The position numbers and the translations under genes are program-made. Positions 2,191-60,755 of a DNA stretch of 64,000 bases are shown piece after piece. Origin of the DNA: Eledone cirrhosa (lineage: Eukaryota); contig OZ024740.1 in the NCBI GenBank assembly GCA_964016885.1, positions 192,448,001-192,512,000 on the forward strand, read 5' to 3'. Numbering within the stretch: the stretch's first letter is position 1; the number at the start of each line of letters is the position of its first letter. The notes under the pieces are model-generated. The model searched no databases. It saw only the letters and a list, made by a program, of their open reading frames with translations, and was not told the origin of the DNA.

Positions 2191-4306
2191 TTTCATCAGC
2201 AAAGCATAACCTTCGCCATATTAACACAACGGTTATTAATTACTATGGAGTCACTCAATATAAACATAATATAAATATATGCTAAATATATATATATATA
2301 AAACCTTCGCTTACGTTGGAAGCAATGTAATTTATATGACCACAAACATGCTAAGAAGAGAAGTTACATTTTTTTCATTTTATACGCTACTGTGTTAAAA
2401 ATGCAAATTACATATCATGACATAGGAAGAGAAACCTGACGAAATAACATGTAAGGAACACGAATAAAATGGATTTGATCATGTATCTACTAGATTAGGA
2501 CATACCTGGTGCTCAGTATTCAAGATAGTGCAATTGACTTTTCAGACCATTATTAGATACTTTGCAAGCAATTACTCTTTTAAAGGGAAAAAATAAAATG
2601 TAAGCGTGTTGAAAATGCCTTAATATGTAATAGCTAGTTCTGTAGATTACAAACAACGATAGAATCATGTTAAGTATACGCATAAGAACCTCCAAAGAAT
2701 CACCTATAAATAAAGTGCAGAACCGATACCGGTGGAAACGCAGAATTTCGAATATACCTGCCATGTATGTTTTGTAAGAAACACTTTTTTATTATTTTTA
2801 CCGTATCAATAATTATATAGTGCTGGAATGTATTTAATCCAATTGACACATTCTGTGCCTTTGCCTCATATATAAACAGGCTTCTGTCTGTCTGTCTGTC
2901 TCTATCCCCACACACAAGCACACACATGCCCACTCACACGCACACACTAATAATCCCCCCCCTACATATATAAATATACATACAGAGAAAGATATATATA
3001 TATATATATATATATATATATATATAGATAGATAGAGAGAGAGAGAGAGAGAGAGAGAGAGAGAGAGAGAGAGAGAGAGAGAGAGAGAGAGAGAGAGACT
3101 GTGTGTGTGTTTGTAAAAAGCATGATAGTACATGTGAAGGCCTATAGTTATGAAGCTGTCAGCTTCCAAAATTCATAGTTATATGTTTTCAAATGTTTAT
3201 TCGCAAGCATAACTTATATTGCTAGATAAACAAATACACATTTCAGAGTGAGCATCTTAATTTCAGGCCGAGCGAGTGAAACATTAGAGTAACAAGACTC
3301 ATTATTTAGTCATAATAAATGTAAATTTAAAATTTAGTTCGGTATTGAGTACTCCTTTCTTGTCCGCCAACTACATTTGTATGAATGTATACATGTAAAT
3401 ATGTATGTAAATATGTATGTATGTGTTTGTGTGTATTTGTGTGAGTGAGTTGATGTGATTGTGTGTGTGCATGGTAATTATAGCAAAACGTCACAAAATA
3501 CGTTGAACATTATTATATCGAAAATTAGATTTTATTCATAGTTAACTGAGTAAACAATGGCTTAGAAATTACGTCTTAATTTCCGTAATCTACCTAATTA
3601 TCTTTATAAATGAAAAAGGCCACGGAAATAATTGAAAAGATAATTAAAATTAACCGGTTAATGAGAATTTACTACAAAGCTGCCTATAGTATGCACTCTT
3701 TGAATTATATTAACATATATTTAAAAGCAAGTGATGTATATAGAATGTATTAATTAATTACATATAATAATTAAGAAATAGATGGAAAGTGCCCTCGTGC
3801 ATCCCAAAAGCCACCTGCATACGTAGGTGTCTACAACATTCACCTACCCGACAACACCACCCAAAACACATGCAGATATGTTATGAAAGTATATTGAAAA
3901 ACACGCATACACACACACACACAGAAACACACTGAGTTAAAATAACATCTTATAACGGAAACAAATATATACAGATACACACATATTTAAATAAACATAC
4001 ATATACTAAGATACAGCCACACATACACACACACACATATATATATATATATATATATATATATATATATATATATATATATATTTCGTTCCTGAATTTG
4101 TTTAGCAAGATTCTTTATCTGAAATCGTGTGTTGAAACCGATATTGTTATACTTTGGGAGGGTCATGTTGCCAATAAGAAACACACGCACCAGTTGCTTT
4201 CACTTCAATTTATTATATATTTATAAATTTATAAATTTACAAATCTACAAACTTATAAGTTTCTGGTTGGTTGGTTGGTTCCACAACCAGATAGTTGTTT
4301 ATATAT

Positions 4307-4351
4307 AGTCATAGTCCTTTCGTCACACACTATGTGACCTCATCAGTGACT
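4307..4351 (-). ncRNA. Minimal type I hammerhead ribozyme (inverted pLTR copy)
   Basis: Reverse complement: AGTCA CTGATGA G GTCACA-loop-TGTGAC GAAA GGAC TA TGACT. Confidence 0.8.
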
Positions 4352-4711
4352 GCGGATTCCTTTCTTTGTTTCTGTGCCTTTCCTTTCTTCTGTCCTACGC
4401 CATTTTGTTTCTGTGTGTGTGTTGTGTGCTCCGTTTGCGCATGCGCCACATCCGGGTGTCTGTGTCTGTTTGTGTTCATTTATCTATTTGTTTATTTATT
4501 TACATGTTGTTGGTTGGTTGTTTGTTCTATGTGTGTGTGTGTTTTCATTTTATCCTTAATTGTAAGTTGTGATGTTGCTGTTCCACTCATATTTGCTATT
4601 TAATTTTGGTTGTAATTCTTTTATGCTTACTGCCTCTGTAATTTGCCTAAACATTGCATCTTTTCTGTGTGTGGATTCTATTTTTATTTCTATGTTCTCT
4701 AATTTACCCTT

Positions 4712-6145
4712 GTGGCCAAGAAAACCCACACAGATAGATGGAACGGGTGGACCAGAGCCATACGGACACCCGAAAACCACGATGAACTGAAGAAAATGAT
4801 TGCACATGCGGTAGGGGCCAGCATAAAATTAACCCTTAAGGAACATATGTTCAAATTTAATGGAAAAACATATGCCCAAGAGGAAGGAGCAGCCATTGGT
4901 GTTAGCATTGCAGGCGACATAGCTAACTTATTCATGGTATGGTGGGACATTAGACTTAAACTTAAACTTAAAGAACAATTAGAAGACAGCTTAACCCTGA
5001 TAATGTACACCCGCTACGTAGATGATATAAACATCGTAGTTAAGACACCCCCACTAGAGAACAGTCAGGAACTAGAGAAAAACACAATGGAAAGCAACCA
5101 GCAAATAGCAAACTCCATCCACCAGAGCATTAGAGTTACTATAGACTACCCAAGTAGACACCCCAACCATCGATTACCTGTACTAGACACAGAGCTCTGG
5201 TTAGATACCATTAACAACCAAAGACAAATCCTCCATTCCCATTATGCCAAACCCATGACTTCCAAACATCTGATCCACCGAATCTCGGCCATTTCGGACC
5301 ATACCAAAATCAACATACTGATTGCGGATTTGGTACGGGTGATGAGAAATGTGTCCCGCATGTGCAACCCCGAAGAACTAGAGAGACACATACAACACTT
5401 CATCCACCGTATGCAGTTCTCTGGCTACAATCAGAGAGATAGAATCAGAATGTAAAGAGGAGCCAGAACCAAATGGGAAAAAATGGTAAATAATGACATA
5501 AATGGGACCTGCCCCTTGTATAGGAGCAAATTTTGGAATAGAATAGAAAGAACTAGGAACAACCCAATAGAATAAACTCATGGTATGATAGCAATAAATA
5601 CCAGAGTGTAATGTTCATCAATACAATCCCTGGAGGCGAACTAGCCTACAAATTTAGAAGGGCCCTAAATAAACATAAACCCAATATTAAGATGGTAGAA
5701 AGACCAGGTACCTCCGTAAAAACAATTATTAGCAAGACATACCCGTTCCAAAGACCCTCATGCATAGATAAGAAATGTATAACCTGTAAAATAATCCCCC
5801 ATATTAACTGTAAAACTAGAAATGTAGTGTATAGCGTAAGATGTACTGAAGGACAATGTAGAAACAAAAATATAGTGTAGATAGGTGAGACAGCTCGTAG
5901 TATAGGGGAACGGATAAATGAACACTGGCGAGACCTTCAAGATAATAAAGAATCATCTGTACTCTACCAACATGCTAAGATAGAACACAAGGGTAAATTA
6001 GAGAACATAGAAATAGAAATAGAATCCACACACAGAAAAGATGCAATGTTTAGGCAAATTACAGAGGCAGTAAGCATAAAAGAATTACAACCAAAATTAA
6101 ATAGAAAATATGAGTGGAACAGCAACATCACAACTTACAATTAAG
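4712..6145 (+). pseudogene. PLE reverse transcriptase plus GIY-YIG endonuclease, interrupted by stops
   Basis: ORF 4712-5455: QEEGAAIG, YTRYVDDI, TIDYPS..LPVLD, HYAKP. ORF 5611-5880: CxxxxCxxC linker, NVVYSVRC...*IGETARSIGERINEH. Differs from the Naiad-type PLEs elsewhere (tentatively Nematis-like). Confidence 0.88.
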
Positions 6146-58701: not shown

Positions 58702-58912
58702 CAATAATGTTTTGAACAGTTCTTTGATTCTTATATTTCATATATATATATATATATATATATATATATATATATATATATATATATATATATATATATA
58801 TATATATATATATATATATATATATATATATATATGTATATATATATATATATATATATATATATATATATATATATATATATATATATATATATATATA
58901 TATATATATATA

Positions 58913-59905
58913 TACTGTAGAGTAAAGCATGTCCAGATAATTATTTGATAATATATATACAGTTGTACGCGAAGACACCGCGATGGCGCATTTATTTACT
59001 GTTTCATCATTGATGCCTGTTATTCTTATAGCCTGGTCTAATTGATTTTTTATGTGGTTAATTATTCTGATTGGGAGTAGAGATGATGTATATATATTAT
59101 CAAATAATTCTCTGGACATGCTTTACTCTATAGTATTTCGCTCGGATTAATTTATTAATTCTCCATTGAGCCACATCGTGAAAAGTTGCAAAAACACATA
59201 TATACCTGTAACTTTGTTTAATTGGTGTATGTGTAAATATTTATATTTAATAACTCCTATAAAATTGAGATAAAAATTTGGGCGATATTGGGCTGCGCTT
59301 TCTAGCAACCAACCCACTCGCCGTAAGCAACCAATCACACCCTTCCTGACTTGACCACTACTACGTCACAGTTCTCAACCATTTTGAATTCGTGTTTGGC
59401 GGGGGCCAGTTCGGAAAAGAATATGTCCTAGCAAGTTTATCCCCTGAAGAGCTATAAACTCGAGTATGAACCTTAAATAAGGTATCTCAAAAGTGAGCGA
59501 AACCCATGGGTCGGGATTTAGTGATTTAATCCTGGTATGTATATAAGCATTTCTAACATTAATATTTACCTAATTATGTATGGTTGACCGTATATTTAAT
59601 TAATTTCCACGTGCTGTTGAAATGTTGGGTAAATACTCTATAGCGGTTGCACGCGGCGACGCCGCGATGATATTTGCTGTTTCTTCATTGTGGCCTTTTA
59701 GTCTTATAGCCTGGTCTAATTGATGTTTTGTGTGTTTAATTATGGTGATTGGATGTAGAAATAATGTATATATATTATCAAATAATTCTCTGGACATGCT
59801 TTACTCTATAGTATTTCGCTCTGATTAATTTATTAATTCTCCATTGACCCACATCGTGAAAAGTTGCAAAAACACTTATATACCTGTGACTTTGTTTAAT
59901 TGGAG
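58913..59905 (+). repeat. ~677-bp pLTR-like tandem unit with a short 5' inversion
   Basis: 58955-59265 matches 59635-59903; 58913-58961 is inverted relative to 59087-59135. Confidence 0.8.
59439..59517 (+). ncRNA. Canonical-core type I hammerhead with long stem II and 10-nt palindromic stem III
   Basis: ATCCC CTGAAGA GCT..(42 nt)..AGC GAAA CCCATGGG TC GGGAT. Confidence 0.88.
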
Positions 59906-60388
59906 TTTCTGGAAACACATTTTCTGAGATGAATAGTTAGAGAGCTAAGTTGCATTCTGGCAAAACATTTCCTAAAATGTAAAGGATGGATATGCCTCGG
60001 TAACTTCTGCAAACGTTTTGATCTCCCTTCAGTGTGAAGTTTAGTAGCCTTCGTCTTAAAGACTGACCACCATTTTGGATGATCTTCAAAAGAATTCTGC
60101 CAGGTTATATCTTTCAAGTCATCGTTTTGATAACATTACTGATTTCAGGAAGTAATGGAGATTTCGACATCTATGGTGGACAGAGTGTATTGAGGTACAG
60201 TTCCAAAACAATCTTCTGTTGCTTTGGTGTTTTTTTTTAGAAAAGTGATCAAGTGTTCCTTCACGTGAGTCAGGACGCTTTAGCAGTATTTGGAGACCGT
60301 TGGCGTTGACGGAACATTGGTGAAGCCTTCTAGATTATATATATATTTATATATATATATATAAATATATATATATATATATATATAT

Positions 60389-60755
60389 ATTAGAAAGTGA
60401 GGTTTTTTTTACAAAATGAAAAATAACCGAGGTGTCCTACACGAGTGAAAGTATAAAGAAAAAGAGATGAAATCGAAAATGCAACTGGAGTCTTATTTTT
60501 TTTTTAAATATATATATTTATTTGGTTCCTTTACCGGTTTCGTAGTTCTTCTGCTTTTCAAAATGTGAGTTGAGATGGAGGGTTTGTGGTTTTTCTCACA
60601 TCTGATGTGAGAAAAACCACAGACCCTCCATCTCAACTCACCTTTTGAAAAGCAGAAGAACAGCGAAACCGGTAAAGGAACCAAATAAATATATATATTT
60701 TTTAAAAAAATAAGACACAAGTTGCATTTTCGATTTCATCTCTTTTTCTTTATAT
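60389..60755. repeat. Second copy of the UUGAAAA-hammerhead fold-back element
   Basis: Matches 6588-6935; HHRs at 60528-60565(-) and 60641-60678(+). Confidence 0.9.

Follow-up and report, generated by a model that had tools for sequence, protein, structure and literature searches.

Head-to-head insertions of Penelope-like elements in a hotspot of the Eledone cirrhosa genome share an outward polarity and appear to pair a tailed with an untailed arm

Introduction

Why should a series of fold-back modules, each composed of two inverted arms, all face the same way, and how are such modules built? The question is raised by one hotspot of one genome, a stretch of 64,000 nt from Eledone cirrhosa (GCA_964016885.1, contig OZ024740.1, positions 192,448,001-192,512,000 of the forward strand), analyzed here and referred to as the window. 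A first-pass annotation had described nine such modules and proposed that both ends of a break in (TA)n prime reverse transcription on separate templates. It also noted that inverted 5' pLTRs are known for Penelope, and indeed head-to-head inversions with a one-sided 'tail' are a published structure of Penelope-like element (PLE) insertions, described in Arkhipova 2013 (PMC3846280), which terms the head-to-head arrangement 'most frequently observed', and in Craig 2021 (PMC8557442, Fig. 2). How PLEs build inverted one-tailed insertions is an open question according to the latter paper, the standing proposal being self-priming on an antisense template (PMC3846280).

Results

Outward polarity of the modules

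Inverted-repeat modules were present at all nine positions (4.1, 6.6, 7.0, 7.5, 9.2, 10.5, 12.4, 33.2 and 60.4 kb), facing outward by motif or by arm homology, and eight extra two-armed modules with the same polarity were found in the window, where 17/17 directly joined two-armed modules thus face outward (Table 1). A naive calculation gives a chance of 0.004 for nine modules alike in polarity, with modules 6.6 and 60.4 belonging to one family and possibly not independent. The direction of the ORF provides independent evidence of the same polarity at 4.1 and 33.2 kb. The tally leaves out the head-to-head pairs with (TA)n between their arms (56-58.7 kb) and a further candidate at 27793-28225, which was dropped because it has neither a hammerhead nor (TA)n flanks. 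The sole inward-facing palindrome in the window (10159-10274) has (TA)n at its centre.

An Rfam search of the window at gathering and E-value thresholds returned no hammerhead family, only hairpin microRNA noise, and hammerheads were called by a custom minimal type-I descriptor allowing a bulged base before helix II. At a score of at least 22, this descriptor matched the window 16 times, but neither the reversed sequence nor any of 15 block shuffles; with a looser form, the count was 20 versus 1. All 18 match rows inside the 16 scanned regions point outward. The annotated arrangement, with the left hammerhead on the minus strand and the right one on the plus strand, was recovered on both arms in five of the nine modules (4.1, 6.6, 10.5, 12.4 and 33.2) and on one arm in three (7.5, 9.2 and 60.4), where the other arm was assigned by homology, whereas module 7.0 had no descriptor match and shows a decayed motif by eye only (core 7281, plus strand). 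The putative motifs are of type I, with a short palindromic helix III, a bulged base opening helix II and a U3-A8 core variant, and at 4.1 and 33.2 kb the putative hammerhead lies inside the terminal repeat, in the same sense as the ORF.

The junctions with (TA)n had also been read as RNA 3' ends. They do lie on the outer side, but ~20-300 nt downstream of the hammerhead cleavage site, and are not ribozyme cleavage ends; moreover, module 7.0 is flanked on its left by (GA)n, and module 7.5 adjoins at its left end a 35-nt piece of another family instead of (TA)n directly. The claim that two arms are the rule was overstated: two-armed modules are common in the window, but at least seven pieces are single-armed or unpaired, and the layout was already published. 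The polarity is real, but it is the published structure of PLE insertions.

Identity of the elements

The modules are 5'-truncated PLE copies and short non-coding hammerhead-bearing families, fused head to head within (TA)n; target duplications cannot be delimited because the flanks are (TA)n. The ORF of module 4.1 contains reverse transcriptase (RT) motifs, a CxxC linker and a GIY-YIG with CCHH, and is broken by a frameshift and stops. Its RVT_1 match (E=0.0011) is below the cut-off, and its product shares 70% identity with an RT protein of 803 aa, named from Octopus vulgaris, the C-terminus of which matches the translation of 5575-6141 at 55%. A Pfam search of 5575-6141 gave no GIY-YIG match, the only one being in the 41.2-kb relative (E=0.0068). 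Read directly against the description in PMC8557442, this translation has CCHH and two cysteines between GIY and YIG, whereas the other, decayed ORFs in the window have one cysteine or none there. As judged by these motifs, the 4.1-kb element is an endonuclease-bearing PLE, with a single predicted ORF in which RT is followed by a C-terminal GIY-YIG. A C-x4-C-x2-C motif appears to precede the endonuclease; a CX2-5CxxC linker upstream of GIY-YIG and a (TA)n target bias are described for Neptune (PMC8557442), and the element is assigned to this clade tentatively, because the linker motif is common to Nematis. The non-coding families include tandem units, every one carrying a putative type I hammerhead, in modules 10.5 (four motifs) and 7.5 (two matches plus decayed cores), and modules 12.4 and 9.2, with one motif per arm.

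Table 1. Arms, modules and related pieces in the window.
Feature	Position	Strand	Description
Module 4.1, left arm	4085..4714	-	inverted PLE 3' end; hammerhead core 4346; 56-nt tail 4085-4140
Module 4.1, right arm	4715..6567	+	5'-truncated broken PLE ORF to 6142; hammerhead core 6354; untailed end
Module 6.6, left arm	6590..6798	-	U3-A8 core hammerhead 6760; ~62-nt tail
Module 6.6, right arm	6797..6935	+	hammerhead 6826; untailed end; central microhomology 2 nt
Module 7.0	7015..7443	.	divergence between arms 19.5%; right arm the longer; hammerhead-like motif decayed; polarity solely by eye
Module 7.5, left arm	7540..8309	-	tandem 528-nt units; hammerhead matches 7788, 8307; outer end ~115 nt longer
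Module 7.5, right arm	8310..9160	+	tandem units; core 9036; short end; central 22-nt duplication
Module 9.2, left arm	9234..9976	-	532-nt tandem units; hammerhead match 9565; ~80-nt tail
Module 9.2, right arm	9978..10207	+	core 10019; untailed end
Single 55-nt arm, family 9.2	10228..10282	-	part of the only inward-facing palindrome
Module 10.5, left arm	10462..11242	-	~420-nt units; hammerheads 10690, 11112; untailed end
Module 10.5, centre	11243..11272	.	(TGAA)n filler
Module 10.5, right arm	11273..12362	+	2.6 units; hammerheads 11645, 12069; tailed end
Module 12.4, left arm	12422..12630	-	hammerhead 12583; untailed end
Module 12.4, right arm	12627..13103	+	309-nt units; hammerhead 12901; ~40-nt tail; central microhomology 4 nt
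Extra module 13.2	13181..14830 (right end approximate)	.	two arms
Module 13.2, left arm	13181-13240		60 nt, inverted; ends inside ORF region; 13241-13412 assigned to neither arm
Module 13.2, right arm	from ~13413	+	PLE endonuclease region
Module 33.2, left arm	33150..33913	-	hammerhead-like motif, U4A core, 33305; 86-nt tail
Module 33.2, right arm	33914..34884	+	endonuclease-region ORF; motif 34815; untailed end
Extra module 38.6	38591..38781	.	palindrome, hairpin centre; 3' hammerhead half by eye; right arm ~78 nt longer
Extra module 38.9	38888..39160	.	left arm ~30-nt tail; right arm decayed U3-A8 hammerhead by eye
Extra module 49.1, family 4.1	49093..49538	.	left arm tailed (core 49309, -); right arm untailed
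Tail-only insertion, family 33.2	51453..51539	-	stops at short-end site
Extra mini-module 51.8, family 33.2	51832..51914	.	arms non-overlapping except 4-nt microhomology; left arm upstream of short end, right arm inside tail
Extra module 53.8, family 4.1	53808..54236	.	left arm untailed (core 53962, -); right arm tailed
Extra mini-module 54.4, family 33.2	54353..54402	.	arms non-overlapping; 3-nt microhomology
Extra module 58.9	58915..59915	.	left arm 47 nt; right arm in tandem units, hammerhead 59444 (+); right end lies outside (TA)n
Module 60.4, family 6.6	60391..60752	.	perfect-centre palindrome; left arm tailed, right untailed; motif 60645 (+)

Pairing of tailed and untailed arms

Outer ends are fixed per family, and modules of fixed-end families have one tailed and one untailed arm, a pairing found in 8/8 modules of three such families (P<=0.004 versus independent start-site choice, at most 0.5 each). 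Wherever both ends could be defined (15 modules), one arm was the longer, by 30 to ~115 nt. TA-rich loose ends were found at the short end of family 6.6 in 40 contigs of run X7; runs X3-X6 and X13, with a small share of words, were left out. Published PLE insertions (PMC3846280, PMC8557442) resemble those of the window in their 5'-truncated copies, partial tandems, head-to-head inverted 5'-truncated copy at the 5' end, often one-ended tail, (TA)n targets, and palindromes or microhomology at the junction. They differ in tail length (30-40 nt, versus 30 to ~115 nt in the window), and most modules here are non-coding. The addition to the published layout is that each fixed-end module pairs a long-ended with a short-ended arm, and that this pairing looks strict, not optional.

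Arm nesting, central junctions and shared variants

With arm limits set by hand, the short arm reaches further 5' than the tailed arm in 6/14 modules (non-nested), and the arms are nested or equal in 8/14. The arms of mini-modules 51.8 and 54.4 have no overlap beyond microhomology, and those of other modules overlap by up to ~780 nt. Microhomology at the central junctions, a check suggested by the first-pass annotation, was found at 2-4 nt (sum of 18 over seven scorable centres versus a null mean of 5.0, P=0.0004). The centres lack (TA)n; those of modules 60.4 and 38.6 are palindromic, the latter lying in a hairpin.

Arms differ by 1.0-19.5% substitutions. Those of module 12.4 differ at 2/209 sites and those of module 9.2 by two deletions, and the tandem units of module 10.5 are not mirror copies; a mirror test on the units of modules 10.5 and 7.5, which are 6-18% apart, gave no clear signal beyond one three-site haplotype. 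A deletion common to the right arm of module 9.2 and to 10228-10282 was not accepted as proof of two templates because the latter piece may be a local copy. The two 4.1-kb arms carry the same minority letter of their family at 6/9 positions checked, at one of which 96.8-99.8% of the family reads differ.

Raw Illumina reads from another sample contain opposite-strand joints within family 4.1, at least four among the 15 joints listed; as they are listed without direction, they give no polarity count, and none of the 15 is a central junction of this window. Among 33 loci of metagenome relatives, mostly short collapsed contigs, an inverted arm was found in two (one junction, head to head) and a tail-to-tail arrangement in none, and a search of viral contigs gave no relatives. 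In a metagenome PLE that is unrelated, two contigs (L030, L031) contain a head-to-head junction.

Discussion

We consider it likely that the modules formed in a single event, in which both cut ends primed reverse transcription at two fixed RNA start sites. Of the two DNA ends of a cut in (TA)n, one would prime at the distal site and its partner at the proximal site. The resulting cDNAs, of the same sense, would each terminate on their own, pair through their 3' ends and be filled in. The RNA for both arms would come from one source locus, more probably as one molecule (either a tandem transcript or a monomer copied with strand displacement) than as two, and the non-coding families may be mobilised in trans by the same enzyme. 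In LINE-1 twin priming, the second target end primes internally, which gives an inverted arm and a central join with microhomology. The non-overlapping geometry of mini-modules 51.8 and 54.4 is exactly that of LINE-1 twin priming (compare PMC2837659), whereas the second site here is fixed per family, 30-115 nt from the first, overlaps between the arms mostly run to hundreds of bases, and such events are common, not occasional.

Biochemical parallels come from the accessible text of Frangieh 2024 (PMC11167929), in which the Poseidon protein of Anolis carolinensis, a predicted dimer, cuts and extends both strands of AT-rich DNA in vitro, the tail being bounded by two RT start sites. The AT-rich target, the two start sites and an uncut hammerhead RNA as template are shared with the modules, the outer ends of which, all read from sequence, lie downstream of an uncut hammerhead. 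The 4.1-kb element, on the other hand, has a Neptune-type Cys linker by motif reading, and that part of the paper does not connect both-strand priming with inverted insertions. The non-nested arms, the central microhomologies and the in vitro extension fit priming from both sides followed by cDNA joining, and this part of the earlier proposal is supported. Against it count the eight of 14 modules with nested or equal arms and the two palindromic centres, both of them predictions of fold-back, and the start-site choice in vitro, which was alike for the two strands (PMC11167929, accessible text); fold-back would leave microhomology as well.

Fold-back, or self-priming, was proposed in Arkhipova 2013 (PMC3846280) and in Craig 2021 (PMC8557442), where the tail arises by 'EN-mediated resolution': a single template folds at a palindrome or microhomology, its copying gives a hairpin that is integrated, and the endonuclease trims the tail of one arm. 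Besides these nested arms and palindromic centres, the near-identity of the arms of module 12.4 and the rare variants common to the 4.1-kb arms speak for it. Fold-back of target-primed cDNA, however, cannot yield the six non-nested modules, so that simple fold-back is ruled out for those six and only a pre-integration hairpin with one-sided trimming survives. As, in addition, RT starts in vitro at each of the two tail limits (PMC11167929, accessible text) and the units of module 10.5 are not mirror copies, we regard fold-back as unlikely.

The version of the first-pass annotation, with two independent RNA templates, free start-site choice at each end and subsequent joining of the cDNAs, is in our judgement improbable. 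It would need no strand displacement for the long arm overlaps, it suits the predicted protein dimer (PMC11167929, accessible text), and arms differ in modules 9.2, 10.5, 7.0 and 53.8, the non-mirror units of module 10.5 and the deletions of module 9.2 fitting two templates. Free choice, however, predicts tail/tail or none/none in about half of the modules, and 0/8 was found in fixed-end families. The shared 4.1-kb variants also count against it, although these could reflect gene conversion or one source active at that time. These variants, the non-overlapping mini-module arms and the strict pairing fit one RNA or one locus at least equally well as the separate templates of the earlier proposal. 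To account for the overlaps, one RNA would have to be copied two times, or a tandem transcript or a pair of RNAs would be required, and two RNAs from one locus with coupled start sites are part of the best explanation. The likeliest reading is twin priming from both cut ends, with RNA from a single source, probably a single molecule, as template.

A single-armed insertion followed by another at its 5' junction would agree with the common single-armed pieces and the reuse of (TA)n tracts in the window, but is highly improbable: the later copy would meet the target beside the earlier one by its 3' end instead of its 5' end, the two arms invariably belong to one family, and the centres lack (TA)n. 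Assembly fold-back artefacts are scarcely credible, even with the window's own central junctions absent among the 15 read joints listed, given the divergence between arms, the family-specific ends, the opposite-strand joints in reads of another sample and the head-to-head junction of the unrelated PLE.

The hammerheads resemble those described for PLEs and for non-LTR retrozymes in the accessible text of Cervera and de la Pena 2014 (PMC4209133) and Li et al. 2026 (10.64898/2026.07.22.740005), sharing type I, a short palindromic helix III, the bulged helix II base, the U3-A8 variant and opposite-strand pairs 100-700 bp apart, and animal non-LTR retrozymes also have tandem non-coding units of ~310-530 nt. 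Unlike retrozymes, the arrays here have 1.5-2.6 units inside PLE-type inverted insertions, with ends that are not cleavage sites; the retrozyme accounts, as far as accessible, favour rolling-circle intermediates and do not treat inverted arrays.

Outward polarity by itself is not new and calls for no more study. Two inexpensive counts, of how tails pair in each insertion and of how arms nest, can tell the models apart wherever a genome is rich in PLEs. With rather more doubt than confidence, we suggest that obligate asymmetric twin priming is the standard PLE integration, a protein dimer holding one RNA, priming the two DNA ends at the distal and proximal start sites, respectively, and leaving exactly one tail per two-armed insertion. 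If true, it would cover 50-bp stubs, ORF-bearing copies and parasitic hammerhead arrays alike; a single mechanism would account for the inverted repeat, for the tail on one side and for the pair of in vitro start sites, and the antisense self-priming model would be replaced.

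Polarity of the inverted modules

Self-comparison of the window recovered, at their annotated positions, the nine inverted two-armed modules (named by window position in kb). Rfam reported no hammerhead in the window, and these ribozymes were scored with a purpose-written descriptor for minimal type I motifs, which at a threshold score of at least 22 gave 16 matches in the window, while neither the reversed window nor any of 15 block shuffles yielded one (a looser descriptor gave 20 versus 1 in the control). The first-pass annotation had assigned all nine modules a single, outward polarity (hammerhead on the minus strand in the left arm, plus strand in the right), and this holds: both arms were matched in five modules, one arm in three, with the second assigned by homology, and the decayed motif of module 7.0 is legible by eye only. 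No inward-facing matches were found in 16 regions scanned, and the ORFs of modules 4.1 and 33.2 have the sense of the right-arm motifs.

Eight further directly joined two-armed modules (13.2, 38.6, 38.9, 49.1, 51.8, 53.8, 54.4 and 58.9 kb), oriented by family homology, descriptor match or ORF sense (two through motifs read by eye), are likewise outward, giving 17 of 17 in the window; an inverted repeat at 27.8 kb was excluded from this tally for want of a polarity marker. Two-armed fold-backs are frequent but, contrary to the rule supposed in the annotation, not universal: no fewer than seven pieces are single-armed or unpaired (7.5, 10.2, 25.3, 31.06, 39.5-44.2, 44.2 and 51.5 kb). Among 33 metagenome relatives, an inverted arm occurs in two contigs (one junction), head to head, and none is tail to tail. 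As target priming obliges each arm's 3' end to face its target, polarity alone is barely informative on mechanism. The (TA)n junctions had also been read as ribozyme 3' ends; the orientation stands, but the ends lie ~20-300 nt downstream of the cleavage sites, implying templates uncut at that ribozyme.

The right arm of module 4.1, whose family is high copy in public runs, is a broken, 5'-truncated ORF that joins reverse transcriptase (RT) to GIY-YIG and includes both a CCHH motif and a Cys linker. Of 48 listed matches the best, a protein of 803 aa named from Octopus vulgaris, shares 70% identity over the RT and 55% over the endonuclease start, which makes the host probably an octopus or a near relative of one. 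Modules 13.2 and 33.2 are endonuclease-region stubs, and all others represent hammerhead families without coding capacity; tandem units of ~310-530 nt occur in four of these.

Outer ends and arm nesting

One arm exceeds the other by 30 to ~115 nt, a stretch termed the tail, in every one of the 15 modules whose two ends could be defined (modules 13.2 and 58.9, with one end not comparable, were excluded). Tail pairing can be fairly assessed only in families with fixed ends, namely 4.1 (three modules), 33.2 (three) and 6.6 (two), in which short and long ends recur at identical letters. All eight of these modules have one long and one short end, for which independent end choice gives a probability of at most 0.5^8 = 0.004, although modules 6.6 and 60.4, with differing flanks and centres, could share a common origin. 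Short ends coincide with TA-like letters within the element, and public run X7 holds forty contigs with TA-rich loose ends at the family 6.6 short end.

The untailed arm extends further 5' than the tailed arm in six of 14 modules (arm limits set by hand; 7.0, 13.2 and 53.8 left out), and the mini-modules 51.8 and 54.4 have one arm placed entirely upstream of the short end, with the second confined to the tail. Inverted arms produced by a target-primed cDNA folding onto itself are impossible for these six modules, including the non-overlapping 51.8 and 54.4, whereas the eight nested or equal modules are compatible with fold-back and both-end priming alike.

Central junctions and source of the arms

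Microhomology at the central junctions, a check named in the annotation, is in excess: seven centres comparable with a family copy have 2, 4, 4 and 3 nt (by script) and 2, 3 and 0 nt (by eye), in total 18 where the null predicts 5.0 on average (P=0.0004; P=0.0008 for the four scripted centres only). The unscored centres include two palindromes, one (TGAA)n filler and six lacking a reference copy.

The annotation had inferred that each arm was copied from a separate template. At nine positions of module 4.1 where most family reads (40 listed of 526 rows) carry another letter, six variants are common to both arms and three private to the right arm; at position 6347 the shared letter occurs in <4% of the family reads listed. 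The six shared minority letters indicate either a single source sequence for these arms or conversion. Two deletions distinguish the arms of 9.2, and at one three-site haplotype the units of module 10.5 do not mirror each other, both of which count against a simple copy. One RNA or two RNAs from the same locus would both fit, and strict tail pairing and the non-overlapping stubs lean towards the former.

Arm-to-arm substitutions of 1.0-19.5%, which mostly reflect age, exclude an assembly echo as the source of the inversions. Raw Illumina reads of run X14 show at least four opposite-strand joints within family 4.1 (direction not given) among 15 joints listed; the window's own junction is not among the 15 (94 further joints lie outside the listing).

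Coordinates of additional features (window positions unless a metagenome contig is named)
Position	Feature
4037-13240	Strong insertion hotspot: a single (TA)n tract in which eight two-armed modules from different families adjoin one another
6826	U3-A8 hammerhead core, family 6.6 (example; also family 38.9)
8301-8347	22-nt tandem duplication across module 7.5 central junction
8307, 59444	Helix II inserts of ~50 nt, hammerheads of two families
10159-10274	Sole inward palindrome; (TA)n at its middle
11243-11272	Module 10.5 centre: (TGAA)n repeating the left arm's final four letters; perhaps slippage during reverse transcription by an enzyme related to telomerase, or a microsatellite that grew afterwards
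12627	Module 12.4 right arm, starting 5-9 nt past predicted cleavage site
54353-54377	Module 54.4 left arm, 5' end at predicted cleavage site; with 12627, hints at a ribozyme-made 5' end on some templates
14885-18685, 21158-25002	A pair of related LINEs (endonuclease-RT), both broken, 73% alike and ending in (ATT)n
25301-25840	Element 3' end inside hammerhead helix II, directly at (TA)n; same 25 nt also 515 bp upstream
27793-28225	433-bp inverted repeat, arms ~9% apart, no hammerhead or (TA)n flanks; MITE-like
31703-33245	Three tandem units (~460-550 bp, 98-99% alike) of flank DNA, (CA)n(TA)n and 86-nt family 33.2 tail; could be a tail-only insertion with very long target duplication, later amplified, or assembly duplication
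34815	U4A hammerhead core, both arms of module 33.2
39584, 58659	U4C hammerhead core, two copies of one family
39503-44187, 55811-58740	Longer decayed Penelope-like elements, minus strand; Asn-rich linkers preceding endonuclease, like those described for rotifer Penelopes
L003:1-936, 5118-6053; L004:1-123, 3319-3441	Metagenome Penelope-like contigs whose two ends carry direct repeats, identical or nearly so; tandem or collapsed copies would look like this

Relation to published insertions

An inverted pLTR with optional tail is described for Penelope-like element (PLE) insertions, with head-to-head named as the commonest arrangement observed and self-priming proposed, an antisense strand serving as template (PMC3846280); the same layout recurs, frequently with the tail confined to one end, and with a (TA)n bias, the inversion mechanism being called open (PMC8557442). 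In vitro, a PLE protein cuts and extends both strands, two start sites delimit the tail and uncut RNA is used (PMC11167929); minimal hammerheads are paired on opposite strands, with a U3-A8 core (PMC4209133); tandem retrozymes are linked to PLEs (10.64898/2026.07.22.740005); and the passages of PMC9977147 consulted add nothing on inversions. No paper giving coupled twin priming as the cause of PLE inversions was found in a search outside which older subscription Penelope papers and supplements lie. Twin priming is the L1 mechanism in which the second end of the target primes internally and yields an inverted arm.

The modules are real and of a known kind, being new families in which PLE insertions have the layout already published. 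What they usefully add is strict tail pairing and arms that are not nested; both features are countable genome-wide and speak for priming from both ends rather than for fold-back.
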